Made by a program: the position numbers and the translations under genes. Source: a virus. From it: a DNA stretch of 64,000 nucleotides. The notes below the pieces were generated by a model. That model was not told the origin of the DNA and did not search any database. It worked only from the letters and a program-made list of their open reading frames with translations. Below are positions 1 through 43,260 of the stretch, one piece after another. The stretch spans positions 32,001-96,000 of the IMG/VR virus record IMGVR_UViG_3300020045_011333, one strand, 5' to 3'. How positions within the stretch are numbered: position 1 is the stretch's first letter; every line of letters begins with the position of its first letter.

Positions 1-101
1 ATCATAAGCGTCTTGATCTGGCTTATGCTCGGGCAGATGTATGGGATAAAAATTTGATTGTAGTGGATGAAACGAAATAATTCACAGAGAAGGAACTAGT
101 C

Positions 102-275
102 ATGCATACTGAAGCAACAATCCTCGCTTATATTGAAACTAATAAAAATGGTGTAAGCTTTTCTTACAAAGATTACGACAAGAAAATTTTGAATGCTCTT
201 GTGAAGTCTGGTAAAGTTATAAAGAGAAAATATTCAGTAAGAAATTACGATTATACGTCTTACAGACTGACATAA
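102..275 (+). CDS. Small basic hypothetical protein (57 aa, MHTEATILAY...), not in the ORF track
   Basis: ATG preceded by AAGGAA; open to TAA 273-275; followed by a terminator-like hairpin. Confidence 0.6.
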   Translation: MHTEATILAYIETNKNGVSFSYKDYDKKILNALVKSGKVIKRKYSVRNYDYTSYRLT

Positions 276-280
276 AAATT

Positions 281-303
281 AAGGAGGCGAAAGTCTTTTT
301 TTT
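281..303 (+). terminator. Probable intrinsic terminator
   Basis: AAGGAGGC-GAAA-GTCTTTTT (G:U-rich stem, GAAA loop) plus T-run, between convergent genes. Confidence 0.45.
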
Positions 304-346
304 ATTGTTCTAATTGAAAAGAGAATTAGTGGTCTGCCTGTCCCCG

Positions 347-703
347 TTAGGGGTTTTGTTCCGCAACTACAACGTTTACCGCCTCAACTTTTTTCTTATC
401 TTCTAATAGCTTCTCTGTGTCTTCATGTTCCGCGCCAATCACTTCATTCGTCATATCAGCGGCTTCTATAATCTTATCAAGCTTGAGGTGTAGCGCGATT
501 TCTCCACGTTTAGTAGATACTAGCACGGCAAGGCCAACAATCATTGTGAAGACAGATATGGAAACGTTAAGGATGGTTGAATCTAGCTGGAAGATTAGGG
601 CTAGAGCGGTTATGATGACTACAGCGATGAAAGAGATAGGCTTAGACATTAGGTCGGAAAAGGCGTTAACTGCTTTTTCTAAGTAGGAAGAGATGGTTTT
701 CAT
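347..703 (-). CDS. Low-affinity iron permease (Fet4-like) family membrane protein
   Basis: Two hydrophobic segments followed by RGEIALHLKLDKIIEA, matching the bacterial Fet4-family motif RDxxA(I/L)xxKLDELI. Confidence 0.6.
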   Translation of the reverse strand: MKTISSYLEKAVNAFSDLMSKPISFIAVVIITALALIFQLDSTILNVSISVFTMIVGLAVLVSTKRGEIALHLKLDKIIEAADMTNEVIGAEHEDTEKLLEDKKKVEAVNVVVAEQNP

Positions 704-1068
704 TTTTCGTCCTCAGGGCATTCCCAATACTCAGAATGATATTCAAAGAACCACCAATCTGTTTCACAACATCTCATCCAAGAACCTTCTGCCCCTTTAT
801 AGGGAGCTTCAATAAATGCAGCGGCTCTTATTTCTTTTGGATCTTCTAAGAGTTCTAGAGCAAGTTTATCAGATGGTAGAAAAGGTACTCTAATCATTTC
901 TACTAATTCAGTTAAAGTTACATCTTGATTAATATTTAGGTCATTATGGAAGCCAATATTGGCTTTTTTGTTTTCTAAATCAATACTATGTATTGCAATG
1001 GCATCGTTTCCATAAGGTACTTTAAACATTTTTGTTTTCTCCTGAAATATTTCTAACCGTTTTTCCAA
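700..1068 (-). CDS. Hypothetical protein (122 aa)
   Basis: ORF track; overlaps neighbours in operon fashion. Confidence 0.55.
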   Translation of the reverse strand: MEKRLEIFQEKTKMFKVPYGNDAIAIHSIDLENKKANIGFHNDLNINQDVTLTELVEMIRVPFLPSDKLALELLEDPKEIRAAAFIEAPYKGAEGSWMRCCETDWWFFEYHSEYWECPEDEK

Positions 1069-2125
1069 TCGTCTGTTCGGATAATTTAAATTTTGAAGCT
1101 AAAACTGTGTAAGTAACATCACCTTTAGCATATGCCTTTCTAATTTCATCATAAGTTTCATCATTTTCTACTTTCGCAAAAACATTATTTGATCCTGCAT
1201 TTCTTTTTACAGTATTTAACATATTTTGCTCACACTGTCGAAATTTATCTTGTTTTTTAGCATGATCCATGTTATATGTATGATCACAAGGTTCCAAATT
1301 AGATAATTCGTTATTTTTAGCGTTACCATCTATATGATTAATTAGCGGTGTCTCTGGCGATGGATATCCTTTAAAATACACATAAACTAATCTATGAGTG
1401 GACATGTGGTGAACTTTACCATTTAGAGATTTAGATACTCTAAAATACCTCTCTTTTTTACTTAAAGATGTACCTATAAAATTACCTGTAATGGTATTTA
1501 ATACTCTACCATCTTCAAATACTTTAAATTCTCCAGATTTAGCACAATTTAATATTACAGATTCACTTTCGTAATTAATTTTTGTATGTTTAGGAATAAT
1601 TACTTCTGGCATAGCTACATGTTTATAAGATTTACCTAAAACTGCTTGCATAATAGTTGATTTATTAGAATTAAATTTCTCGCAGAGTTTTTTATAAGAA
1701 TAATCTCCAGAGGCATAAATACAACGCATTTCCCATACCTGCTCATTAGTAAAATTACGGTTAGTATTTTTAGTTCCGCGAGCTACAGCGTGAGCATTAT
1801 TTTCTTGACTTGTAACTACTTCTAGATTATCAATATGATTATTAGTTCTATCACCATCTATGTGGTTAATCCATTGACGGTCTTCTGGTATAGGTCCATT
1901 ATACATTAAATAAACTAATCTATGAATAGGAAAGTTTCTGGGTTTTCCAAATTCTTTAAAATTATAAGTTACGTAATGATAACCATCTGGTTTAGGATTT
2001 TCACTTAAATACCTATTTAAAAGTTTACTAAAAACTTTACCTTCGCGAGTAACTTCATAAAGATTGGTATTACTAAATAATTCTAAAAATAATTTTTCTT
2101 TTTCTCTATTAACTGGCATTGACAT
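1022..2125 (-). CDS. Homing endonuclease with two tandem HNH domains
   Basis: Two H-R-L-V ... INHIDGxxxNNxxxNLE motifs (INHIDGDRTNNHIDNLE, INHIDGNAKNNELSNLE), each followed by an HTH-like segment. Confidence 0.85.
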   Translation of the reverse strand: MSMPVNREKEKLFLELFSNTNLYEVTREGKVFSKLLNRYLSENPKPDGYHYVTYNFKEFGKPRNFPIHRLVYLMYNGPIPEDRQWINHIDGDRTNNHIDNLEVVTSQENNAHAVARGTKNTNRNFTNEQVWEMRCIYASGDYSYKKLCEKFNSNKSTIMQAVLGKSYKHVAMPEVIIPKHTKINYESESVILNCAKSGEFKVFEDGRVLNTITGNFIGTSLSKKERYFRVSKSLNGKVHHMSTHRLVYVYFKGYPSPETPLINHIDGNAKNNELSNLEPCDHTYNMDHAKKQDKFRQCEQNMLNTVKRNAGSNNVFAKVENDETYDEIRKAYAKGDVTYTVLASKFKLSEQTIGKTVRNISGENKNV

Positions 2126-2189
2126 TTTTATTATTCTTCTTCATCATAATGTTTGTATTGTTGTATCGATACCGAGTGGTAACAACATA

Positions 2190-2218
2190 CGTATAACAGA
2201 AATTTTATAAAAAGTCAA
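2190..2218 (-). promoter_or_regulatory. Sigma70-type promoter for the HNH gene
   Basis: TTGACT-N17-TATACG on the minus strand. Confidence 0.5.
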
Positions 2219-2226
2219 GCTTTATT

Positions 2227-2388
2227 TTAATAATACATAAAATAAAAGCCCTCAGATTTCTCTAAGGGCTTGTAATTTCTTTTATACATCTTTTTAGACT
2301 TGATAACTCGTCTGCGATAAAGTTCGCTGGCTAGGTCTTTAGCCATTGGATTACGCCGTAACGGTTCCTGTTTGATTTTTTTGCTCAT
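2227..2388 (-). CDS. ArfA-like (alternative ribosome-rescue factor) small basic protein, 53 aa, not in the ORF track
   Basis: MSKKIKQEPLRRNPMAKDLASELYRRRVIKSKKMYKRNYKPLEKSEGFYFMYY; the core N-x5-L-x3-L-Y-R-x-R-V-x-K-x-K-K..Y-x-R aligns with the E. coli ArfA core as I recall it; overlaps the terL 3' end. Confidence 0.6.
   Translation of the reverse strand: MSKKIKQEPLRRNPMAKDLASELYRRRVIKSKKMYKRNYKPLEKSEGFYFMYY
2236..2271 (-). terminator. Intrinsic terminator located inside the ArfA-like ORF, before its stop codon
   Basis: AAGCCCTTAG-AGAAAT-CTGAGGGCTT (10-bp stem, one G:U) then TTATTTTAT on the minus strand. Confidence 0.75.
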
Positions 2389-4024
2389 GTTTCAATCTCT
2401 CTTCCTTTTCTTTATTTTTTCTCATCATTTCTTCTTCAATAGCTTTTTCTACAGCATTTCTACGCCATTCACTAGAAGGCGCGGACCCCGCGCCGTGGAG
2501 TTTTTGAGTGCCGCCTTTTCTAACCCTACCTCTAGCCCATTCTAAATATTGGCTTGTGGAATCCACAGCATCATCAAACTGGCCATTAGGAAAAGAAAGT
2601 ATTTCTTTTTCATAGTCTGCTACCCAATTAGCACGTTCTGGAATATGAATCAAGCCTGCTTCAAACATTGGTGCCACAGCGTCCATTCTAAATTCTTTAG
2701 AATTATTATTAGTAGAAATAGCTATAACAGGCGTAGTTGATCTACTTTGCTTTAATTGTATGTAACTTGTACCTGAACCTTTGTCTTCAACTAAAATTGC
2801 TGAAGCTCCCCAACGTTCGGCAGTTAAATCAACTTCTTTAATTAATTCTGGCAACTCTAATTTTTTTCTGACCATATCTAATAGGTAGTGATGCCCTGTA
2901 GCCGTTTCGGCCCAAGTAGTTAAAACACTAAAATCGTTGCGCTCTCCTTTTTTCTGCGCTGAGTCAACAGATAAAGTAATTCTTCTAATTTGAATAGTTT
3001 CATCTTTTCTTGGATCATTACTATATTTTTGAAACCATATTCCTCTAATTAAACCGCCTTCACCATCTAACGGCTCACCTTGATAGATAGCGCTGAATTG
3101 GTGAGTAGTCATAGAATTTCTAAGATTAATATAATGCTCTGCCGGGTAATAATCCCATACAGTTTCGTCAACTCCTTTTCTTCCAATAGGGTCGTTTTCA
3201 GGAATTCCGTCAGATAAAGCTTTTAGATTAAAATATTCATAAGGAATCATTTTTCCTTTTTTAGATTCTTCTAATAAGAATCCGATGAGATCATTTTCCG
3301 AAAATCTCGTATTTACGATCACAATAGGTGCTCTAGGAAGTAAGCGTGAGCTAAAATCTGCAAGGAACCAAGTTTTCGCGGTTTCTCTAACTTTTGGGTC
3401 TTGTGCATCATCCCAAGATGAATACAAATCGTCAATAGCACCTATTGATGCGCGAATTCCAGATATTCCGCTCCCGACGCCACGTGCCAAATACTCAGAT
3501 TTGTTAGTCATGGCCCACCGTGCACCGGCTCTAGCGTCAGCTAATAGAGCGCAATCTGGAAATATATCTTTGTATTCATCAGATGTAACATAAGCTTTAG
3601 TTTTTTTACCTAACTCACCTTCAGCAAATGTGGCATTATAACTAGCTTGAAGCCATTTTACCTTACGCCTTCCCATGGCCCAAACAGCGAATCTTCTTGA
3701 AGAGTATTCGGTTTTACCGGCTCCGGCACAAACGCTTAACGCGAGTCTTGGTATAATTCCTTCTTCTACAAGTTGCAATCTCTCACATATAATATGATGA
3801 TGGTAAGCAGGAGGTTCTTCCATATTTAAATATTCGGCAAAACAAGAATAATTATTAAAAGAGTTTTCTCTTAATTTATTTTTATATTCTGCTTCATAAT
3901 GCTCAATAAAACTTTGAATTCCAGCTAATTGTCCGTATGGATCGCTAGTCTTCGTCAACTCCGTTATAGCTGATATGTACTGGTTCGGAACTGGTTTCGG
4001 GAAGATTGATCGGAACGAGTCCAT
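2351..4024 (-). CDS. terL: Terminase large subunit (likely start at 4024, MDSF...; ORF-track start 4102)
   Basis: Walker A GAGKT, Walker B AIDD, IVNTRFSEND coupling motif, RNase H-like nuclease SVDSA...DFS, EDKGSG, DDAVDS; GGAGG SD before ATG 4024. Confidence 0.95.
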   Translation of the reverse strand: MDSFRSIFPKPVPNQYISAITELTKTSDPYGQLAGIQSFIEHYEAEYKNKLRENSFNNYSCFAEYLNMEEPPAYHHHIICERLQLVEEGIIPRLALSVCAGAGKTEYSSRRFAVWAMGRRKVKWLQASYNATFAEGELGKKTKAYVTSDEYKDIFPDCALLADARAGARWAMTNKSEYLARGVGSGISGIRASIGAIDDLYSSWDDAQDPKVRETAKTWFLADFSSRLLPRAPIVIVNTRFSENDLIGFLLEESKKGKMIPYEYFNLKALSDGIPENDPIGRKGVDETVWDYYPAEHYINLRNSMTTHQFSAIYQGEPLDGEGGLIRGIWFQKYSNDPRKDETIQIRRITLSVDSAQKKGERNDFSVLTTWAETATGHHYLLDMVRKKLELPELIKEVDLTAERWGASAILVEDKGSGTSYIQLKQSRSTTPVIAISTNNNSKEFRMDAVAPMFEAGLIHIPERANWVADYEKEILSFPNGQFDDAVDSTSQYLEWARGRVRKGGTQKLHGAGSAPSSEWRRNAVEKAIEEEMMRKNKEKEERLKHEQKNQTGTVTA

Positions 4025-4514
4025 CAATACTTCCTCCATTATTTTCAGATTTTTGATTGATGATCGAAATGAAAGTCTGGCTTCCCAAGTTAGATTTGTC
4101 ATTAGTAGGTAGCATCCTATTAGTAGTTTTTTCTTCCGGTTCGGGACGGACTTTGTTTATATCTGCCATATCTTTCAAAAGAATGGCTGCGTTTTTTAAA
4201 TCTTTTTCTTCTCTTGCAATGTTTAGAAAAGCAATGTATTCATTATTAATCCATTCCAAAGAAACAGCCGCGTCTTCAACTTTTTTCAAAGGTAAAGGCG
4301 GCGCAGTATCCATAGCACCTTTTTCAGCAGCTTTGATCTTCAACTCTTCAACTCGTGCCGCAACTGTAGGCTCACTCATTAGTTTAGAAGCATTAGCAGC
4401 GGCTGTACTATTCTTACAAGCATAGCCCGCCTCTTTATAAGCAGACATTTGAGTATAACCGGCTGCTATATATGTAGCAAATTTTTCTTGTTTTTCTATA
4501 CTAAGTCTAGCCAT
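3945..4514 (-). CDS. terS: Terminase small subunit
   Basis: N-terminal HTH KQEKFA...AYKEAGY...AAANASKL typical of TerS; directly upstream of and overlapping terL. Confidence 0.75.
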   Translation of the reverse strand: MARLSIEKQEKFATYIAAGYTQMSAYKEAGYACKNSTAAANASKLMSEPTVAARVEELKIKAAEKGAMDTAPPLPLKKVEDAAVSLEWINNEYIAFLNIAREEKDLKNAAILLKDMADINKVRPEPEEKTTNRMLPTNDKSNLGSQTFISIINQKSENNGGSIDGLVPINLPETSSEPVHISYNGVDED

Positions 4515-4782
4515 CGCAGTACTTCACCAAGTCATTGTTTTCCAAGTAACTGCAATACTCATTAGTATAATCCAGTTGTATTCTATATGTTTCTATTACT
4601 AGGAAGGTTGCATCATCTATTGCTTTGGATCTTCCAACAATTTCCGAGCTATGAGCATAAATCATTCTGGTATGTGCATTCCTGTGATTTTCATGCGCCA
4701 AGCTTAAATCCATAAGAATAGCTTTTATATCGGCTCGATATTTCTCAGGAAACCTATTAATATCTGTAATGATTAAAGTCAT
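4507..4782 (-). CDS. Hypothetical protein (91 aa)
   Basis: ORF track; abuts neighbours. Confidence 0.55.
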   Translation of the reverse strand: MTLIITDINRFPEKYRADIKAILMDLSLAHENHRNAHTRMIYAHSSEIVGRSKAIDDATFLVIETYRIQLDYTNEYCSYLENNDLVKYCDG

Positions 4783-5306
4783 GCTAAGTCGCCAATCAAT
4801 GTAAACTGTTTTTCTAACTTATAGCCTAGGTTGCAGAAGCCATAAAATGCAATCAAAACTGCTTCAGCGCGACCATCATCCATTTTCCTAGCCCAAGCCT
4901 TAGAACATTGTGGAAAATACTGAGACGCCCTGTAACGAGCCGCGTCTTTTTCTGCTGGGATTTTAAGTTCTGATTTCCATTTCTGAGGGCGAACTTGGGT
5001 AACAGGAACTCTTAATCCGGCACAACAGCCTAGAATAGCTCCGAATCTACTTCCGAATGAGAATGAGGATACTACACCTTCTCCGGGTCTTGCATTGACT
5101 TCTTCAACGTATAGGTGAAAAATTTTTTCATCATCTAATATATTAGCCATACCGGAATGATCTAAAACAGTTTTCTTTTTTACGCCTGTTTTAATTTCAA
5201 ATGTTGGCATATCAAAAATTTCTATGGTATAATTAACAGGATCAAGCTTAGCGAACGCTCCTTTAGCTCCGGGGTCTGCTCCGCAGATAATTGTACTTTC
5301 ACCCAT
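4779..5306 (-). CDS. RuvC-like Holliday junction resolvase
   Basis: GADPGAKGA, LYVEEV, SFSFG, PQKWK, DDGRAEAVLIA motifs of the phage RuvC-like family. Confidence 0.85.
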   Translation of the reverse strand: MGESTIICGADPGAKGAFAKLDPVNYTIEIFDMPTFEIKTGVKKKTVLDHSGMANILDDEKIFHLYVEEVNARPGEGVVSSFSFGSRFGAILGCCAGLRVPVTQVRPQKWKSELKIPAEKDAARYRASQYFPQCSKAWARKMDDGRAEAVLIAFYGFCNLGYKLEKQFTLIGDLA

Positions 5307-6012
5307 TTTTAAAACTTTCTAATAACGCAGGGTTGCCCCAAATCTCATCGATTTCAGCTTGACCTCTGATTTGAGATTCTACAGCGTCTTCTATATTTTT
5401 CTCATATGAGTAATGTTCATATTTACCATTGACATAAACTCTAACAACGTATAAGTTTTTAAGTTTAAACTCATACACGCCTTTGTGATTTGTTTCGCGC
5501 TCTTCGCTATTATTTTGGGCGCTGGCTTTAGTGATATAGGCGTGGAGGTTGTAATGGTTCAGTTGAGTTTCGGCCCAATTCACAGCATCTTTTTTATGTT
5601 TTTTACGAGTACCTTTATAAAGATGAGGGTAGTGCCAAATCTTTACGCCCCAATACTTTCCTTCTTTCCTAACTAGATAGTTTCCTAATCGCTTTGTATT
5701 GAGTGAGGAAGCGTATACCAGATTATCTCGGCTCAGGTTCTTCAGATTGCCGTCTATCGCTTCAATAGGCTCTTTGGGCCAATGACCATACATAAGGAGC
5801 CAAGCCAAGTGGTGTCCCTGAATATTAGTCCTATTAAAACAAGTTACCAGAGTATCTTTATCGGGGAAATCGGAGCGCTTCACAACTTTCCAACCACCAG
5901 CGCCATGATAGCGATAAATTTTACCCGTCTCTTCCTCGTAACGAAACTTGGTCTTTAGTATCCTAATATCGACATCGGGATACATGTTAGAAAAATTATA
6001 AACCCGGCCCAT
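5299..6012 (-). CDS. HNH/AP2-type endonuclease-like protein with degenerate HNH motif
   Basis: FRYEEETGKIY, HHLAWLLMYG..P, IEAIDGNLKNL (His replaced), two AP2-like C-terminal segments. Confidence 0.65.
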   Translation of the reverse strand: MGRVYNFSNMYPDVDIRILKTKFRYEEETGKIYRYHGAGGWKVVKRSDFPDKDTLVTCFNRTNIQGHHLAWLLMYGHWPKEPIEAIDGNLKNLSRDNLVYASSLNTKRLGNYLVRKEGKYWGVKIWHYPHLYKGTRKKHKKDAVNWAETQLNHYNLHAYITKASAQNNSEERETNHKGVYEFKLKNLYVVRVYVNGKYEHYSYEKNIEDAVESQIRGQAEIDEIWGNPALLESFKNG

Positions 6013-36447: not shown

Positions 36448-36524
36448 TGCGGGGTAGAGCAGTCTGGTAGCTCGTCTGCCTCATAAGCAGAAGGTCACAG
36501 GTTCAAATCCTGTCCCCGCAACCA
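36448..36524 (+). tRNA. tRNA-Met (CAT), initiator-like body
   Basis: Cloverleaf TGCGGGG/CCCCGCA, loop CTCATAA, TTCAAAT, CCA; U1:A72 paired and no triple G:C in the anticodon stem. Confidence 0.9.
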
Positions 36525-36601
36525 TAACTATATAAAGAAATAAAATACAATTATGAATTGTTACCAACCCTTCAGTAATATAACCAATCATTACGATAAG
36601 A

Positions 36602-36739
36602 ATGAATAAAATAACAATTTTATTCATAATAGGGTATATCGTAATGTTAGCAGGATTTTTAAGTTCTGCTATTTTTTTGCCTATAAGTTTATTCATTATA
36701 ATGACAGCCGTTTGGCTCAGTGAGAAAGAGGACGATTAA
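36602..36739 (+). CDS. Small hydrophobic membrane protein (45 aa), not in the ORF track
   Basis: MNKITILFIIGYIVMLAGFLSSAIFLPISLFIIMTAVWLSEKEDD. Confidence 0.4.
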   Translation: MNKITILFIIGYIVMLAGFLSSAIFLPISLFIIMTAVWLSEKEDD

Positions 36740-36888
36740 TCATGGTTGAAACTAAAATTATTAAATCTTCTACAGGCGAGAAGTATGTAGCCGTTTTTAT
36801 TGATGGAAAAGAAATCTTACCGGCACAAGATAAAAAGTCTTGACAATTCATAATAACAATGATATAGTTATGATCTGAAATAAAGTTA

Positions 36889-36962
36889 CGATGGGTAGTT
36901 TAATTTAAGAGAACAGTTCCGTTGAGGAAAAAATGCTGGCGAGTCACCAGCCCCGTTGACCA
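36889..36962 (+). pseudogene. Degenerate tRNA-like element (UUG at best)
   Basis: 7-bp acceptor, 4-bp D stem, GCTGG/CCAGC T stem with non-canonical loop CGAGTCA, ACCA end; short anticodon arm. Confidence 0.6.
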
Positions 36963-36970
36963 AATAAAAT

Positions 36971-37046
36971 GTCAGTATAGCTCAGTCGGTAGAGCAAACG
37001 CTTGATAAGCGTTAGGCCAGAGGTTCAAGTCCTTTTACTGATACCA
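36971..37046 (+). tRNA. tRNA-Ile (GAT)
   Basis: Canonical cloverleaf, loop TTGATAA, CCA. Confidence 0.95.
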
Positions 37047-37087
37047 AAAAGTGGAGGAGAAAATAAAGCATTAAAGAAAGATTTAAA

Positions 37088-37222
37088 ATGCTAAAATTTC
37101 TCAACAAGTGGAATAAACGACGAAATACTGTTAATGAACTAAGTCGAATGTCTGACAGGGAACTGAGTGATATCGGTATTAGTCGTTTAAATATTAAAGA
37201 AGTAGCTAGAGATTTAATTTAG
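37088..37222 (+). CDS. DUF1127 (YjiS-like) small protein, 44 aa, not in the ORF track
   Basis: W.KRR.T..ELSRMSDRELSDIGISR..I signature; GGAGG upstream. Confidence 0.8.
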   Translation: MLKFLNKWNKRRNTVNELSRMSDRELSDIGISRLNIKEVARDLI

Positions 37223-37237
37223 ATTTTTTAGTTATAA

Positions 37238-37314
37238 CAGGGTGTAGCTCAACTTGGTGGAGCGCAAGCTTTGGAAGCTTGAGGTTATCTGTTCAATTCA
37301 GATCATCCTGACCA
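37238..37314 (+). tRNA. tRNA-Pro (TGG)
   Basis: Cloverleaf, loop TTTGGAA, CCA. Confidence 0.9.
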
Positions 37315-37341
37315 ATTAACATAACAAAAGGAATACCATAC

Positions 37342-37503
37342 ATGCTAGGCACAATTTTAATTATTGTTCTAATTCTTCTATTGATTGGAGCTATCCCCGG
37401 AAGTCCCGTAAATTATGGTTTTGGTAATGGACTAAATGGTGGTCTTGGTATTGTTCTGGTAATTCTAATTATCCTTGCGTTAACTGGCACAATTCATATT
37501 TAA
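37342..37503 (+). CDS. DUF3309-like small membrane protein, 53 aa, not in the ORF track
   Basis: MLGTILIIVLILLLIGAIP....GGLGIVLVILIILALTG; AAGGA SD. Confidence 0.75.
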   Translation: MLGTILIIVLILLLIGAIPGSPVNYGFGNGLNGGLGIVLVILIILALTGTIHI

Positions 37504-37508
37504 ACAAA

Positions 37509-37583
37509 GCACCTAGAGCAAGTAGGACATGCAGGGACTTCTAAACTCCTGAAAAGTCGGCTCGATACCGACTAGGTGCACCA
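37509..37583 (+). tRNA. tRNA with ambiguous anticodon: CTA (amber suppressor) in the best-pairing register, TCT (Arg) in the alternative
   Basis: GCACCTA/TAGGTGC acceptor, GTCGG/CCGAC T stem, CCA; anticodon arm GGGAC-TTCTAAA-CTCCT. Confidence 0.75.
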
Positions 37584-37727
37584 AATTACTATTCTCATAA
37601 TAGAGGAAATATAAATGGTCGACGAAACGTAGGTATACAAGTTCTCCTCTTATATCAGAGATGGCCCTTCTTAATATCATTTATTAAGATTTAAATCATC
37701 ATCAAAATATAATCGGAGAATACCTAA

Positions 37728-38054
37728 ATGTCTATCGAACTTAAAATTAAATCAAAACATCTTACTGAAGAAGCAAAAATTATTCGTTTCGAGGAAAGAA
37801 AACAAAAAGCTAGAAATAAAGAATTATTTTGGTCCTTAAGAAGCCACAGAACATGGGAAGTAAGGAATGAAAATAGAGCTACGTTTTTAGCCCGTGCTTA
37901 TTTAGCTGGAAAATCTTATAAATCTATTGAACATAAAGTTCATGATATTTGGAAGTTGAAAGCTTACATTTTACCAAGAACTTTAGTAATGGTAAATAAA
38001 TACGGAACTATAAAATTAACTAAAGATGATTTAATTAATTGGATCAGTGAATAA
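37728..38054 (+). CDS. Conserved basic phage protein (108 aa)
   Basis: LKIK.K.L.EEA.IIR.EE...HR...VRNE.RAT.LA.A...G..Y..IE family pattern; GGAG SD. Confidence 0.65.
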   Translation: MSIELKIKSKHLTEEAKIIRFEERKQKARNKELFWSLRSHRTWEVRNENRATFLARAYLAGKSYKSIEHKVHDIWKLKAYILPRTLVMVNKYGTIKLTKDDLINWISE

Positions 38055-38061
38055 ATAAAAT

Positions 38062-38128
38062 TAAGGTTTCCTCTTCCTGATGCTTTGAGGAATTAAATTA
38101 AGTGAGTGTGACACTTAGGCCTTGACCA
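38062..38128 (+). ncRNA. CCA-ended tRNA-like element with only two internal hairpins
   Basis: TAAGGTT/GGCCTTG (3 G:U) acceptor-like stem, TAAGTG/CACTTA arm with 7-nt loop, ACCA, 2 nt before tRNA-Thr. Confidence 0.35.
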
Positions 38129-38130
38129 AT

Positions 38131-38207
38131 GCCGATTTAACTCAGTTCGGTAGAGTAGCTGATTTGTAATCAGTTTGTCAGGGGTTCAAATCCTCTAATC
38201 GGCTCCA
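38131..38207 (+). tRNA. tRNA-Thr (TGT)
   Basis: Cloverleaf, loop TTTGTAA, CCA. Confidence 0.95.
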
Positions 38208-38208
38208 T

Positions 38209-38283
38209 GCTCTCTTCGTCTAGTGGCTAGGATAGGACGCTTTCATCGTCCAGAAGACGGATCGAAACCGTCAGAGAGTACCA
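38209..38283 (+). tRNA. tRNA-Glu (TTC)
   Basis: Cloverleaf, loop CTTTCAT, T-loop ATCGAAA, CCA. Confidence 0.9.
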
Positions 38284-38329
38284 TTACTAAAACCATATTA
38301 ATAAATAATAACAAAAAGAATAATATTAA

Positions 38330-40504
38330 ATGGCACTTACCTCCGCTCAAGTTAAAGCTAAAATTGATAAACTTTCAGTCAATATGGATAGGCTGGATCA
38401 GATTGTCAATGGTAGTGATACAGCTACTGTAGTAACAGACAATTCTATTGTCCCTTCTGTAGCTAAATTTTTTAAAACTTTAGAAGATGCTGGTGGTAGT
38501 GGTGCTGGCGGATATTATTTACCTGAGAAATATGGAGCGACGGGTAATGATCCCGTTCACGACGACTATCCGGGTATAAGAGCAGCTATGGATGCAGCAT
38601 TAGCTGCTGGCGGCGGCTCTATTTATTTTTACCCAGAAAAGACTTATTATCTTTCTCAAACTTTAGAAGTTGATCCTTCTAGGCTTACTATTATTGGTAA
38701 CAGTGCAAGGTGGGATTTTAGACTCAAGAATTTTATTGATCCTGCTACTATTGGAGAGTCCGTTAACAATCCTGATTTTAATGGACAAACCGGCTGGTCC
38801 ACAAGCCCATTTAATGGTAATACGATTACTTATGGATCGTCCACTGTTTCAGCACCTAATGTAGCTTCTGAAGGCGCTACTATTGGCACATATTCTGAAT
38901 TTGGACAACAAATGACGATGCAGCCGGGGAAAATGTACCGAGTTACGTTGCAAGTCGATAGTATTGATACGATTACTGTGGGTATTAACACTAGCAGGTC
39001 TGTAGGGGTCAGTTTCAGACAGTATGGGATAGGTAATGGTGGTTCAGATGGCACTTTAAGATGGGCCTCAAACACTAATACAGAATATAGTACTACTAAG
39101 ACTTGGGTTTGGGATGTATTAAATAATTTTACTAATCCGTATCTAACTGTTCAATCTAATAACGGATTTGTGATAACTAGAATTTCTGTTAAAGAATTAC
39201 CTAATAATACAATGGTATTAATGAGAGTACCACCAAGCGGACAACTTAGAGGACATAATTTCCACTCTATTTATAATTTAAAAATTAGAGGTAAATCTGG
39301 TACAAGTCTATATTCGGATGGGATAGTATTTGATACACCAACTAGCGGATTTGCTTCTCGTGTAAATATCTATAATCTTGATCTTTCCGAAAATGTGGGC
39401 CGAGGGTTTATTTTTCAAAACCGTGCCTACCTTATGAATTTTTATAGCTGCCGAGTCGTATGTTCTGTATCGTGCGTAGATACTCTTAGAGGATCTGCTG
39501 ACGCGGGAGAAAACATTAATTTCTTCGGAGGAAATTTAGGAGGAGGATTGGTTGGGATTACGTCCAGAAATATGGATATTAGATGCCATGGCATGTCTAT
39601 TGATTTTTCTCGCCAATGGATTGTTTCTAGGGGTGGTGTTGTTGAACTTATTGGTTGCCACTTAGAAAATTCTGATTTTGAAACTGATCAAACCGCTACG
39701 GATAATCAGTATCGAATTGACGTAGATGGTGGAACTGTTCTGATTGATGGTGGTTATGTACTAAACGGAGGAACCACAGCCAATCTAGTTAATGCTCTCG
39801 CTCCTTTTAGATGCACCAATGGCACTATTAGAATAAGGAATGCCGCTTATTATGGATTAAATGGCTCGCTAGGAAAAATCTCCGTAGGCGATGGTAAAGT
39901 GGAAATGTTTAAATGTCATAACACTTCTGGCCCAACAGCCACAATAATTGCTGACAATTCTAATGAAGTACCACCTATCGAAGGTACTGTTGTCCCGTTC
40001 GATATACCAGTTACATCAGGCACAACGATATTATCAGTAGCTATGAGTACGGAGCAAGCCAGAACTGGTACTTCATCTATTAAAATTCTGAAAAGTGGGC
40101 TTGGACCGGGCGTAGCTGCAACTGCTTATCTACTATTCCCTTGCGGTGCTTATCGTGGTTTTGGTATGGAAGCGTGGTGGAAAGTTCCTATTACTTCGGG
40201 ATTAACTAATCCATTTCCTGTATTTTTACAAACGGGGTGGTGTAGAGCGGTTAGAGGAACTGACGGTGCATTTAAAATTGTTAAAACAACTTTGGTTTCT
40301 GATTTACCATTAACAAATATTGATCCTACTATTGATAATCCTTGGACTAGAGTAGGCTCAATGACAACACGTCTGGATGGTAGCTCGTCTCATGATGGCG
40401 AAGCCCCACCTTGGGCTACCCATGCTTTTATGAATGTGGCTATGGTTCAAGCGCCTAATGGTGCAGCAATCTACTTTGACGATGTTCACTTTAATCAATA
40501 TTAA
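38330..40504 (+). CDS. Tailspike 2 (shared N-terminal anchor, pectate-lyase-like beta-helix, carbohydrate-binding insertions), inside the tRNA array
   Basis: N-terminus nearly identical to 33898; YLPEKYGATG....DD...I.AA..A..A.GGG.IYF motif. Confidence 0.8.
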   Translation: MALTSAQVKAKIDKLSVNMDRLDQIVNGSDTATVVTDNSIVPSVAKFFKTLEDAGGSGAGGYYLPEKYGATGNDPVHDDYPGIRAAMDAALAAGGGSIYFYPEKTYYLSQTLEVDPSRLTIIGNSARWDFRLKNFIDPATIGESVNNPDFNGQTGWSTSPFNGNTITYGSSTVSAPNVASEGATIGTYSEFGQQMTMQPGKMYRVTLQVDSIDTITVGINTSRSVGVSFRQYGIGNGGSDGTLRWASNTNTEYSTTKTWVWDVLNNFTNPYLTVQSNNGFVITRISVKELPNNTMVLMRVPPSGQLRGHNFHSIYNLKIRGKSGTSLYSDGIVFDTPTSGFASRVNIYNLDLSENVGRGFIFQNRAYLMNFYSCRVVCSVSCVDTLRGSADAGENINFFGGNLGGGLVGITSRNMDIRCHGMSIDFSRQWIVSRGGVVELIGCHLENSDFETDQTATDNQYRIDVDGGTVLIDGGYVLNGGTTANLVNALAPFRCTNGTIRIRNAAYYGLNGSLGKISVGDGKVEMFKCHNTSGPTATIIADNSNEVPPIEGTVVPFDIPVTSGTTILSVAMSTEQARTGTSSIKILKSGLGPGVAATAYLLFPCGAYRGFGMEAWWKVPITSGLTNPFPVFLQTGWCRAVRGTDGAFKIVKTTLVSDLPLTNIDPTIDNPWTRVGSMTTRLDGSSSHDGEAPPWATHAFMNVAMVQAPNGAAIYFDDVHFNQY

Positions 40505-40510
40505 TAAAAT

Positions 40511-40585
40511 GCGGGTTTAGCTCAGAGGTAGAGCGTCTGATTTCCAATCAGAATGTCGCGAGTTCGATCCTCGCAATCCGCTCCA
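40511..40585 (+). tRNA. tRNA-Gly (TCC)
   Basis: Cloverleaf, loop TTTCCAA, CCA. Confidence 0.95.
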
Positions 40586-40602
40586 AAATTTAAAGGTGTT
40601 AA

Positions 40603-40845
40603 ATGGCGCATTTTATAAATAAACTAGTTGACAACGATGGTACTTTATGGTATCAGTACCATCGTAGAGCTACTGGAAGAATGTATGAGAGTCGCACGGT
40701 GTGGGGCGAAGATATTGGACAAGCTAGAGTCTTTACCACAGAAAGTGCTGCCAAGAGAAGTTCTAATGAAGAACGTTCAGAAGTAGTAGAAGTAGAAATT
40801 AAAATAATTAGTAACAATAGCTCAGTTGGTAGAGCGCCTGATTGA
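40603..40845 (+). CDS. Hypothetical protein (80 aa); 3' end overlaps tRNA-Phe
   Basis: AAGG SD; ORF track. Confidence 0.5.
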   Translation: MAHFINKLVDNDGTLWYQYHRRATGRMYESRTVWGEDIGQARVFTTESAAKRSSNEERSEVVEVEIKIISNNSSVGRAPD

Positions 40846-40886
40846 AGCTCAGGAAGTCCGTGGTTCGAATCCTCGTTGTTACACCA
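40811..40886 (+). tRNA. tRNA-Phe (GAA)
   Basis: Cloverleaf, loop TTGAAGC, CCA. Confidence 0.95.
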
Positions 40887-40891
40887 AATAA

Positions 40892-40967
40892 GCGGCGGTA
40901 GTTTATACGGTAAAACCTAGGTCTCCAAAACCTAAGAAGCAGGTTCGAGTTCCTGAACGTCGTGCCA
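40892..40967 (+). tRNA. tRNA-Trp (CCA)
   Basis: Cloverleaf, loop CTCCAAA, G73-CCA. Confidence 0.85.
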
Positions 40968-40994
40968 AAAATTATAAAGTAAAAGGAAAAATTA

Positions 40995-41204
40995 ATGCAG
41001 AAGTCAACAGATAAACTAGGCCAACATCCTATGGACCGTCGAGTAAATGGTCGGATGAAAATTCTACGAATTAAGAATGAAGATGGCACTGTAACTAAAA
41101 CTCGTATGGAAGTTCCATATGCTCGTCCTCGTTTTGAGCGTTATGAACCTTTTGTAAATCTAGGTAAGAAGTATCCCTTTGGCTCTAAGAAACAAGGTTT
41201 CTAA
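40995..41204 (+). CDS. Small basic hypothetical protein (69 aa)
   Basis: AAGGA SD. Confidence 0.6.
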   Translation: MQKSTDKLGQHPMDRRVNGRMKILRIKNEDGTVTKTRMEVPYARPRFERYEPFVNLGKKYPFGSKKQGF

Positions 41205-41392
41205 TGGTTGAAGTTCTTTTAATTTCTCGTATTATTCTATTAGTGCTATTTCCTTTAATTTTATGGCACTTGCATACTATTAAACTTTGGTCTTTTGATA
41301 AATTATTAGCTGTGCTAGTTTATAGCTTTTTAGGTCTTGACTTTGCTGCTAATGCATATAGAGTAGCATCTTACGTTATAGGAATTTTATAA
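41204..41392 (+). CDS. Small two-TM membrane protein (62 aa)
   Basis: Two hydrophobic helices; coupled to the upstream ORF. Confidence 0.55.
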   Translation: MVEVLLISRIILLVLFPLILWHLHTIKLWSFDKLLAVLVYSFLGLDFAANAYRVASYVIGIL

Positions 41393-41773
41393 ATGGAATA
41401 TTGGGGCAAACATTTGCTTATTGATGCAAAGGCAGGATCAATTCCAGCTATTTCATCTAAAGAACATATTGCTAAATTCGTAGATGATCTTGTAATTGAG
41501 ATTGATATGATTAAGTACGGACCTCTTTGGATCGAGCGTTTTGCTACACACGATCCGGTTAAGTCCGGCATCTCATTTGTACAAATGATTGAAACAAGTA
41601 ATATTACAGGCCATCTAGTTGACGCTGATGGGGATTTCTATATTGATATTTTTTCATGTAAAGATTATAAAGTAGACGATGTTCTAGATTTGGTGCAAGA
41701 ATATTTTAATCCTAAGAGTGTTTCTTATAAAGTTGTTAATCGTGACGCTAAGTTAGAGCCACTGATTATTTGA
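41393..41773 (+). CDS. speD: S-adenosylmethionine decarboxylase proenzyme-like (pyruvoyl-dependent)
   Basis: WGKHLLID, G.S.VQMIETSNITGH self-cleavage region, YIDIFSCK. Confidence 0.85.
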   Translation: MEYWGKHLLIDAKAGSIPAISSKEHIAKFVDDLVIEIDMIKYGPLWIERFATHDPVKSGISFVQMIETSNITGHLVDADGDFYIDIFSCKDYKVDDVLDLVQEYFNPKSVSYKVVNRDAKLEPLII

Positions 41774-41777
41774 ATAT

Positions 41778-41869
41778 GGAAGGTGATTGTGCTAGGTAGC
41801 ATACACGGTTTTGAAAACCGTTGGAACGTAGCGATACGTTTGGAGTTCGATACTGCCCGCCTTCTTCCA
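41778..41869 (+). tRNA. tRNA-Ser (TGA), atypical
   Basis: Long variable arm AACGTA-GCGA-TACGTT, loop TTTGAAA, CCA; irregular T stem and U73. Confidence 0.75.
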
Positions 41870-41901
41870 TTATAATTTTAAAAAGAAAGAGAGATTACCC
41901 G

Positions 41902-42507
41902 ATGAAATCTTATTTACTTATTGACCGTTCCGGCTCCATGGCCAGTCGTTGGGCCGAAACTATTGGCGCTGTTAATGCATATGTCGAAGAACTAGCAAAA
42001 GATAAAGCTGGTAAGAAGGCTGATATTACTGTAGCTGTTTTTGATAGTGCCGCACCATTTGAACTTATTCGTGAAGATGTAAAAGTTTCTGAGTGGAAGC
42101 CTATTGCTCTTAATGAAGTTAGTCCACGCGGATCAACTCCTCTGTTTGACGCAGTGGGAACTTTAGTTCAAAAAGTTAAGGCCGCTTCTCCTAAGAAAGC
42201 TGCTGTGATTATTCTAACAGACGGTATGGAAAATTGTAGCAGAGAAATTAAAAAGGAAACTGCTAAAATTCTGCTTGACGAACTTCGTGCCAAGAATTAT
42301 GATGTTTCCTTCATCGGTGCCGACTTTGATGCATTTAGTCAGAGTAGTGGTTTAGGAAATGGTTATGGTAATACTATCATTATGAATGCTGGTAATTATG
42401 AAAAGGCATTTAGAGGTTTGGCTACTAAGTCTGCGAGTTATGCCGCAACTGGTTTAGTAGCTGAGTTTACGGATCAAGAGCGTAGTGCAGCCGTAGGTAA
42501 GAAGTAA
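41902..42507 (+). CDS. von Willebrand factor type A domain protein
   Basis: LLIDRSGSM (DxSxS MIDAS), PRGSTPLFDAVG, ILTDGMEN; the ORF-track start lies inside the tRNA. Confidence 0.85.
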   Translation: MKSYLLIDRSGSMASRWAETIGAVNAYVEELAKDKAGKKADITVAVFDSAAPFELIREDVKVSEWKPIALNEVSPRGSTPLFDAVGTLVQKVKAASPKKAAVIILTDGMENCSREIKKETAKILLDELRAKNYDVSFIGADFDAFSQSSGLGNGYGNTIIMNAGNYEKAFRGLATKSASYAATGLVAEFTDQERSAAVGKK

Positions 42508-42514
42508 AATAGAA

Positions 42515-42589
42515 GACTAGGAGGCAGAAGGGTTATGCGTTGGACTGCAAATCCGATATGTGGGAGTTCGAACCTCTCTCTAGTCTCCA
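42515..42589 (+). tRNA. tRNA-Cys (GCA)
   Basis: Cloverleaf, loop CTGCAAA, U73-CCA. Confidence 0.9.
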
Positions 42590-42593
42590 AAAA

Positions 42594-42680
42594 CGAGAAT
42601 GAAGCAGTCGGGTGATTGCAATGGTTTGCTAAACCAATTGGGCCGCAAGGTTTGGGGATCAAGACCTCCGTTCTCGGCCA
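42594..42680 (+). tRNA. tRNA-Ser (GCT)
   Basis: Long variable arm, loop TTGCTAA, G73-CCA. Confidence 0.85.
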
Positions 42681-42733
42681 TTATAATTTAGTATTTGACA
42701 GGTATTAAATTAAAAATAAATGAAGTGTTAAGT

Positions 42734-42809
42734 TCTCTACAATCCAAGCTTGGTGCATGGACGTGCCTGTTAAGCACTGATTAGCTCAGTTCGATTCTGA
42801 GGTAGAGAG
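42734..42809 (+). tRNA. tRNA-Asn (GTT), no encoded CCA, acceptor helix extended by flanking inverted repeat
   Basis: Loop CTGTTAA, G73; flanked by GAAGTGTTAAG/CTTAACACTTC. Confidence 0.8.
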
Positions 42810-42825
42810 CTTAACACTTCTAAAT

Positions 42826-42911
42826 GGGTCTGCGGCAAAGCAGGAGAGTTGCGCCAGACTGTAAATCTGGTCCATAATGGTGAGTAGGCTCGATACCTTC
42901 CAGACCCACCA
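42826..42911 (+). tRNA. tRNA-Tyr (GTA)
   Basis: Long variable arm, loop CTGTAAA, T-loop CTCGATA, A73-CCA. Confidence 0.9.
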
Positions 42912-42928
42912 AATTAAATTTACTTAGG

Positions 42929-43000
42929 TGGCTGGTCGTCTAATGGTAAGACGCTAGATTTTGGTTCTGGATATTGGAGGTTCAAGTCCTCCCCGGCCAT
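42929..43000 (+). tRNA. tRNA-Gln (TTG), no encoded CCA
   Basis: Cloverleaf with U1:A72, loop TTTTGGT. Confidence 0.85.
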
Positions 43001-43012
43001 CTAAATAAATTT

Positions 43013-43088
43013 CCGTGATTAGCTTAACTGGTTAAAGCGCGAGTCTGTGGAACTCGTAAACCGAGTTCAAGTCTCGGGTCACGGTCCA
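43013..43088 (+). tRNA. tRNA-His (GTG), no G-1
   Basis: Cloverleaf, loop CTGTGGA, CCA; the -1 base is T. Confidence 0.9.
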
Positions 43089-43104
43089 TAATAAAATTTT
43101 ATAA

Positions 43105-43176
43105 GCTCGCTTCGCCAAGTGGTAAGGCATTAGGTTTACATCCTAACATACGGAGGTTCAAATCCTTCAGCGAGTA
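43105..43176 (+). tRNA. tRNA-Val (TAC), no encoded CCA
   Basis: Cloverleaf, loop TTTACAT, A73; 3-bp GCC/GGC D stem. Confidence 0.8.
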
Positions 43177-43177
43177 C

Positions 43178-43260
43178 GCGGGTATGATGAAATGGTAGCC
43201 TTGCGAGTTTTAGAAACTCGTGCCTCGTGCGTGGGGGTTCGAATCCCTCTACCCGCACCA
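43178..43260 (+). tRNA. tRNA-Leu (TAG)
   Basis: Variable arm, loop TTTAGAA, A73-CCA. Confidence 0.9.

Follow-up and report, generated by a model that had tools for sequence, protein, structure and literature searches.

The DNA studied here is a stretch of 64,000 nucleotides (hereafter the window) from a phage with a 185-kb genome, direct terminal repeats and at least 14 tRNA genes. Near the beginning of the window, the minus strand carries a packaging unit with terS and terL, followed by a short ArfA-like ORF which begins inside terL and passes through a hairpin before it reaches its stop codon. The features of this locus are the following.

3945-4514, minus strand: terS (small terminase), first gene of the terS-terL unit; Terminase_2, E 1.2e-4, under the Pfam cut-off
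2351-4039, minus strand: terL (large terminase); Terminase_6C, E 1e-12
2397-2407, minus strand: purine-rich Shine-Dalgarno-like tract (AAGGAAGAGAG) inside terL, 8-19 nt upstream of the ATG of the ORF
2227-2388, minus strand: ArfA-like ORF, 53 codons to TAA, translated from the window
2246-2271, minus strand: hairpin inside the ORF, 11-bp stem with a GAAA loop, codons K40-F48
2236-2245, minus strand: T-rich tract that follows the stem; the usual 7-9 nt rule places the expected RNA 3' end here
2227-2229, minus strand: in-frame TAA, starting 17 nt after the last paired base of the stem
1022-2125, minus strand: next gene beyond the putative terminator, an HNH endonuclease containing two HNH_3 domains

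The terL frame is open from 4102 and likely starts at 4039 or 4024, and its last 38 nt are shared with the ArfA-like ORF, the ATG of which is found 38 nt upstream of the stop codon of terL (2353-2351). In the small ORF the conserved core, N13-K40 (NPMAKDLASELYRRRVIKSKKMYKRNYK), has its first residue right at this terL stop, and by position the ORF is the last cistron of the packaging unit. A 53-aa ORF at 2388-2227 starting inside the end of terL had been reported in a preliminary description of this DNA; its translation is exactly as quoted there, and the observation as a whole, namely the ORF, its overlap with terL and its internal hairpin, is confirmed. The sequence of a start signal of its own is also present in the Shine-Dalgarno-like tract, and we infer that this signal is used in translation.

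As for the phage, the window TerL is 39% identical to that of Sphingobium phage Lacusarx, the nearest TerL proteins come from phages of Sphingomonadales and Rhodobacterales, and the GC content is 37%. The overlap between terS and terL (3945-4102, minus strand) amounts to about 80-95 nt, according to whether terL starts at 4039 or 4024, and the HNH endonuclease (1022-2125, minus strand) also has a C-terminal HTH. Further into the window, a cluster of 14 tRNA genes at 36448-43260 (plus strand) includes those for Met, Ile, Pro, Thr, Glu, Gly, Phe, Trp, Cys, Asn, Gln, His, Val and Leu. Within this cluster, Rfam finds a tRNA-Sec at 41778-41865 (plus strand) with 48.7 bits against a threshold of 47, ARAGORN calls no tRNA there, and the element may be a long-arm tRNA or a suppressor. 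A 360-nt structured RNA at 12.3-13.3 kb gave no Rfam match at E<=1.

Gene status and family of the small ORF

When the family profile was built without the window sequence, the ORF scored 49 bits (E 2.5e-14, 1205 frames of the window), whereas the runner-up frame in the same leave-one-out search reached 6.8 bits, and among these 1205 frames the ORF is the sole match to the family profile. In PHROGs it matches phrog_20887 (38.8 bits, E 1.4e-9), the entry for the family, whose function is given as unknown. The family consensus reads KRNPxAKxLRxPxYRKRVVKSKKxYxRK; A16, S31, K32, K33, Y35 and R37 (window numbering) are invariant in 30 sequences, and all these columns are present in the window ORF. 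Both the profile match and the core NP.A..L....[YF]R..V[IV]KSKK.Y.R place it in the phrog_20887 family, which is called GKG-less below by comparison with ArfA.

A word-based homologue search with the window ORF found no relatives, blastn of the ORF region against a phage collection gave no match, and viral contigs scanned for a peptide pattern of the ORF alone gave zero confirmed relatives, but alignment-based scans did succeed and located 13 loci among bacterial genomes, along with 23 on IMG/VR contigs. By tblastn, the 53 residues matched annotated 46-aa 'hypothetical' genes in the Sinorhizobium phages phiN3, phiM12, phiM7 and phiM19 (best E 5e-4) and, more weakly, Rhizobium and Agrobacterium phages. 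The bacterial loci lie mostly in alphaproteobacterial MAGs (HIMB59-type, MarineAlpha5, Pelagibacteraceae, Stellaceae and Acetobacter sp. CAG:977), and a family match occurs in 19 of 301 sampled genomes of the class holding genome G001. An exhaustive profile search of 1.84 billion representatives recovered 1110 metagenomic clusters, almost all of them unnamed, at an E<=1e-3 threshold; the 150 best ones listed are 33-101 aa long. Among ten clusters whose names were checked, a single one is annotated with a function, as 'stalled ribosome alternative rescue factor ArfA'. NCBIfam has no match for the 7 family members tested. The family occurs in alphaproteobacteria and their phages, and, as judged by its sequence, the window ORF is a true gene of the phage, encoding a small basic peptide, because of the leave-one-out score of the ORF set against that of the runner-up, the phrog_20887 match, the annotated genes of phiN3 and phiM12 and the 1110 clusters.

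Several neighbourhoods of family members were also recorded. In phiN3 and phiM12 (L001, L034) the gene is grouped with a tRNA nucleotidyltransferase, a methyltransferase and a RelA/SpoT-family gene, a block which looks like a translation and stress module. The copy in Agrobacterium phage OLIVR5 (record positions 97832-97978; L033:1501-1647) is unannotated and is overlapped by two annotated minus-strand 'hypothetical' ORFs, gp165c and gp166c, of which gp165c may be a mis-call. Around L041, L048 and L049, Pfam scans found AbrB-type transporter, CoA-transferase, AraC regulator and DUF389 genes. The HIMB59-type, MarineAlpha5 and Pelagibacteraceae loci (L040, L045, L051) have the same ORF layout in all three, with a 576-622-aa ORF, a 38-42-aa ArfA-like gene with an ordinary stop, and convergent ORFs of 79 and 329 aa; in L040 the flanking ORFs encode a family-A DNA polymerase of short length (about 585 aa, without the 5'-3' exonuclease domain), a glutaredoxin and a ribonucleotide reductase (RNR) small subunit. 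These SAR11/HIMB59-type copies may be phage-derived, though they lie on contigs of up to 706 kb.

Relationship to ArfA

ArfA (YhdL; Pfam PF03889; PDB 5MGP, 5MDV, 5U4I, 5H5U and 7OJ0) is a small basic peptide of beta- and gammaproteobacteria which is ordered only on the ribosome. Its genes are held to be confined to gamma- and some betaproteobacteria, and a survey in 2024 found arfA in 0 of 2376 alphaproteobacterial genomes (PMC11633108).

The preliminary description had aligned the ORF, without the GKG residues, to the core of E. coli ArfA, and had pointed to the Pfam ArfA model as a check. The model itself (cut-off 25.5 bits) gave no match for the window ORF at E<=10, nor anywhere in the 185-kb phage genome, and the gene is outside the ArfA family as Pfam defines it. 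In phmmer the window ORF alone had no match in the PDB, and ArfA was likewise missing from the PDB matches of a first profile with 6 members. The relationship appears with the 30-member family profile, which, against 177,635 PDB sequences, matched six E. coli ArfA sequences with E values from 4e-4 to 1.4e-3, the next match following at E 5.3. The resulting HMMER alignment covers 33 of 38 positions with one three-residue GKG insertion in ArfA and reproduces the earlier alignment; ArfA chains are the only significant PDB matches of the profile. Sub-threshold matches to Pfam ArfA occur in 13 of the 30 family members, with a best E of 8.9e-4. One relative, P0084, which IMG names ArfA, scores 43.3 bits with the Pfam model, above the cut-off; it is 65% identical to the core of the window ORF over 23 residues, bears GKGS and ends in KSKKGKGSYTRKGK. 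A word-based homologue search with P0084 returned P0084 alone.

At the level of residues, the window ORF and ArfA share an alignable core (N..I...L..P.[FY]R.RV.K.KK...Y.RK). The window residues R26-R27-V28-I29 align to ArfA Q27-E30, the beta-strand that recruits RF2 (PMC8012679), so that an equivalent of this strand is kept in the alignment; at least 70% of the 30 members agree in the R-V-V/I columns, and the family reads R/K-R-V-V/I here. The KGKGS motif is not present in the window ORF, which has SKK-MY where ArfA has NKKGKGSY, and this gap is family-wide; the residues of the motif are individually non-essential in ArfA (PMC6299226). At the place of the KH motif shared by ArfA and BrfA, the window ORF has K40-P41, while some family members, among them L046, L081 and several other entries, do have KH. 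Further differences are the N-terminal motif (NAIEA in ArfA, NPxAK in the window ORF) and the long hydrophobic tail of ArfA, which the full-length window form does without. Unlike ArfA, the window gene is phage-borne and attached to the end of a terminase operon, and its relatives are mainly alphaproteobacterial. From these sequence comparisons we conclude that the window gene is an ArfA homologue belonging to a GKG-less branch.

Genes closer to the classical type were seen as well. PF03889 was found in 1 of 81 sampled genomes of one class, plus a single-genome order. In one bacterial genome, a bona fide ArfA gene (L081:140-256, Pfam 39 bits) ends 7 nt before a tRNA-His gene (263-335). Two loci from the class of G001 (L094 and L097) have ArfA-type genes with a GKG-type insert and a KH motif (KPKKGKGSFKRKKK; KAKKGKTAYRRRPKHP); this class is alphaproteobacterial, and the published survey had no arfA there.

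It might be asked whether there is a gene in its own right here at all, since a frame open by chance across the terL terminator, or a basic DNA-binding protein that assists packaging without a role in translation, would also be short, lysine-rich, overlapping with terL and situated in an AT-rich spacer, and since the gene adjoins terminase genes in four phages. The family signal, however, is strong and specific; the non-basic residues N, P, A, L, Y, V and S are conserved too; homologues occur in bacterial genomes far from any terminase; the rhizobiophage copies stand beside tRNA nucleotidyltransferase and RelA/SpoT genes; and the only structural relatives found are ArfA chains. For these reasons we rejected both the chance ORF and the packaging protein, which we regard as very improbable.

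Hairpin, T-rich tract and stop codon

The stem of the hairpin at 2271-2246 contains 5 G-C pairs and one G-U pair and is followed by TTATTTTATG. Its folding energy is -17.0 kcal/mol, the z-score of the region is -4.2 with 0 of 200 shuffles folding as well, and in a consensus scan it is the only terminator-like minus-strand site in positions 1-6000. By its sequence, the hairpin is the probable intrinsic-terminator stem of the terS-terL transcription unit, and the earlier statement that the ORF runs through a strong intrinsic terminator agrees with this. Read together with the paired TT at 2247-2246, the T-rich tract has the sequence TTTTATTTTATG, which codes for F48-Y49-F50-M51. If termination takes place 7-9 nt beyond the stem, the message would end about 8-12 nt before the TAA, close to the 7-10 nt estimated before, and the TAA at 2229-2227 would be reached only by read-through transcripts.

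The window ORF thus has, at the sequence level, the feature known from ArfA of a stem-loop or terminator inside the ORF that leaves the mRNA without a stop. Its predicted non-stop product has about 48-51 aa, of which about 14-16 residues come after the conserved Tyr; in E. coli ArfA 13-16 residues follow Y39, and the mature protein has 52-55 aa (PMC6299226), so that a mature length near 50 aa would be common to both. Because the TAA is near the stem and the read-through protein of 53 aa differs by just 3-5 residues, non-stop control here may be leaky, and leakier than in E. coli.

Related phages with the same linkage to terL

Two phages with close TerL proteins have the gene at the same place. 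On a 119.6-kb IMG/VR contig (L054) whose TerL is 62% identical to that of the window, the gene starts with GTG, overlaps the end of terL by 71 nt and encodes a peptide 47% identical to the window peptide; a Shine-Dalgarno-like tract, AAAGGGA, lies in the same place as in the window, and a 13-bp hairpin inside the frame is followed by the stop 36 nt later. On an ENA contig (L107) with a TerL 58% identical, the gene overlaps terL by 26 nt behind AAGGAG and contains an 11-bp hairpin followed by TCTTTTTGTTTT, with the stop about 45 nt past the stem; an HNH endonuclease gene comes after the ArfA-like gene. The hairpins of the three phages have no common sequence. The terL linkage is shown by these sequences to be conserved, and the expectation that related phages would keep the frame, coupled to the terminase and with its internal hairpin, was borne out. 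Among TerL relatives at about 30% identity (L003-L029), the gene is absent within the stretches examined. It was also seen that the HNH gene adjoining the unit in L107 (972-1898, minus strand), which is similar to that of the window, is there on the opposite strand.

Comparison with known systems

Among named families ArfA is the closest relative, and arfA and brfA come closest in design. In the literature searched, the sole mention of a phage ArfA is a one-line annotation, which makes no reference to non-stop control, of gp30 of the Pelagibacter phage HTVC027P in a paper of 2025, which also reports the transcript as abundant early and late in infection (PMC12753301). This gene is likewise phage-borne and terminase-adjacent, being directly upstream of terS, and it shares the core NPVAKE..PKYK..I.K.KK with the window ORF. 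It differs in keeping a G-R-G-S insert (KPKKGRGSFKR), in a sub-threshold Pfam ArfA score of 20 bits where the window ORF has none, and in its 24-residue N-terminal extension and ordinary stop; on reading the sequence by eye, no hairpin was seen in the gp30 frame.

The gp277-type 46-aa genes of the Sinorhizobium phages phiN3, phiM12, phiM7 and phiM19 (phrog_20887) belong to the same GKG-less family as the window ORF and have, as in the window, a terminator hairpin and T-tract before the stop; they stand alone beside tRNA nucleotidyltransferase, methyltransferase and RelA/SpoT genes, whereas the window gene is joined to terL. A further relative may be DUF7230 (PF23876), an uncharacterised alphaproteobacterial family which was not mentioned in the literature searched. 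It has in common with the GKG-less family the start RRNP[IV]AK.L and the end Y.RK..KH, and differs in that the V-[IV]-K-S-K-K block is missing. Sub-threshold matches to it occur in 17 of the 30 family members, reaching at most about 20 bits (gathering threshold 27), with none for the window ORF or elsewhere in the phage genome; one DUF7230 member, L084, has a hairpin inside its ORF too. BrfA (YqkK) of B. subtilis is of like design, with a rho-independent terminator before the stop, is repressed by trans-translation and RF2-dependent, and is regarded as independently evolved (PMC8012679). The BrfA chain is not among the PDB matches of the family profile at E<=10.

Conservation of the hairpin before the stop

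A perfect stem of 8-16 bp lies wholly inside the frame in 21 of 34 distinct family members. These stems begin 6-29 nt after the conserved Tyr codon, the stop follows 13-210 nt past their 3' end, and their sequences fall into at least a dozen unrelated classes. As a background, 1.9% of long ORFs from the same sequences contain a perfect stem of at least 10 bp within their last 100 nt, compared with 10 of about 19 family clades (binomial P about 4e-13, the clades being grouped by eye). In the KGRSIRPF clade, which comprises 8 contigs, the DNA is conserved, with mostly third-position changes, between the start codon and the hairpin's 3' arm, and directly after that arm the sequences are unrelated; the conserved unit therefore ends at the hairpin and not at the stop. 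The hairpin of L067 shows paired changes in its two arms, G>A and C>T. The internal hairpin is present in every relative that has cellular neighbours or lies on a bacterial MAG contig (L041, L043, L046, L048 and L049/50).

In the remaining 13 of the 34 members the frame contains no hairpin, and in most of them, among these the 38-aa SAR11/HIMB59-type copies, the basic tail is directly followed by an ordinary stop. Together with the ordinary stop of HTVC027P gp30, this means that non-stop control is not obligatory for the family. As regards the family at large, the hairpin-before-stop design is shown from sequence to be conserved, in accordance with the proposal that homologues would keep a terminator before the stop.

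These data bear on the possibility that the window gene belongs to the same protein family but is free of non-stop control, in which case the hairpin would be a mere terminator of the terL unit, enough transcripts would contain the TAA, and the peptide would be an ordinary ArfA-like rescue factor made constitutively late in infection. Such a reading fits the short distance of 17 nt between stem and stop, with full-length protein gaining 3-5 residues, and the normal stops in HTVC027P gp30, the SAR11/HIMB59-type copies and other relatives; a terminator is moreover required at this place in any case, since the HNH gene that comes next belongs to a new unit. It accounts poorly for the presence in 21 of 34 relatives of an in-frame hairpin, unrelated in sequence and at such variable distances from the stop, for conservation which ends at the hairpin, and for the more remote stops of L054 and L107. 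We consider it unlikely, although it is the strongest of the competing explanations.

Proposed mechanism

Our preferred interpretation, to which we give a probability of roughly 0.6, is that the window gene encodes an ArfA-superfamily peptide made from a non-stop message as the last cistron of the terS-terL late unit. The gene would be transcribed with this unit, and its translation would begin at a start codon of its own within the last part of terL. As the terminator of the unit lies inside the frame, most transcripts would end within 2245-2236, about 8-12 nt before the TAA, as suggested by the 7-9 nt rule and by comparison with relatives, and ribosomes would stall at the message's 3' end. 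As long as host tmRNA-SmpB has spare capacity, the peptide would be tagged and degraded, by analogy with arfA and brfA, whose messages are truncated at an internal stem-loop or terminator and which are repressed by trans-translation (PMC8012679). Once trans-translation is saturated, the peptide of about 48-51 aa would probably be released and accumulate. Its basic tail (SKK-x-Y-x-R...) would then, as in ArfA, enter the empty mRNA channel of non-stop ribosomes, and the R-R-V-I segment would recruit RF2, leading to release of the peptide and freeing of the ribosome. No RF-1 domain protein is encoded in the phage genome and no tmRNA was found in the window; with no release-factor domain in the phage, the mechanism would therefore depend on the RF2 of the host. 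In this scheme we infer the position of the 3' end, control by tmRNA, use of RF2, rescue activity and benefit to the phage. The three sequence features on which the earlier interpretation drew, which are likeness to ArfA, a terminator before the stop and retention of the frame in related phages, support it at the level of comparative sequence analysis.

The step involving RF2 admits of another explanation, in which the peptide docks in the empty mRNA channel like ArfA and there competes with SmpB-tmRNA, sparing phage proteins from tagging, recruits RF1 like ArfT, or parks ribosomes. The basic tail is the best-conserved part of the peptide, the GKG loop and the KH motif are missing, the tails of ArfA, SmpB and ArfB share the channel, and ArfT works with RF1 or RF2 (PMC6299226), all of which would be compatible with such a role. 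Against it, the segment aligned to ArfA Q27-E30, the RF2-recruiting strand (PMC8012679), is also among the most conserved parts (R/K-R-V-V/I), homologues among ordinary cellular genes fit a housekeeping role in rescue, and the KGKGS residues are individually not essential in ArfA (PMC6299226). We hold this explanation to be improbable, less so than a chance frame or a packaging accessory and more so than constitutive expression of an ordinary rescue factor.

Implications

Reviews have expected that further small rescue factors would be hard to find by sequence (PMC8012679). The window gene belongs to a GKG-less branch which is large, with over 1000 sequence clusters, has no name, and occurs in alphaproteobacteria and many of their phages, and this branch ties ArfA to the uncharacterised DUF7230. 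Standard annotation misses such genes, as seen in the unannotated OLIVR5 copy and in others given as 'hypothetical'.

A more far-reaching and tentative suggestion, which we think possible but on balance doubtful, is that ArfA-like peptides from self-truncating messages are a common, as yet unrecognised tool of phages in many lineages, and that the gene gauges the trans-translation capacity of the host. Infection, or a host defence that cuts RNA, would flood the cell with broken messages and exhaust tmRNA, and the peptide would escape tagging; it might then free ribosomes for late protein synthesis or block the tmRNA tagging of phage proteins. A single RNA element would in that case both end the packaging operon and set the switch. 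If the proposed mechanism is true, phages carry a back-up ribosome rescue of their own in which the non-stop-mRNA control of bacteria is retained, and the strain that infection puts on host trans-translation, as well as the way phages cope with RNA-cutting defences, would be opened to simple genetics.
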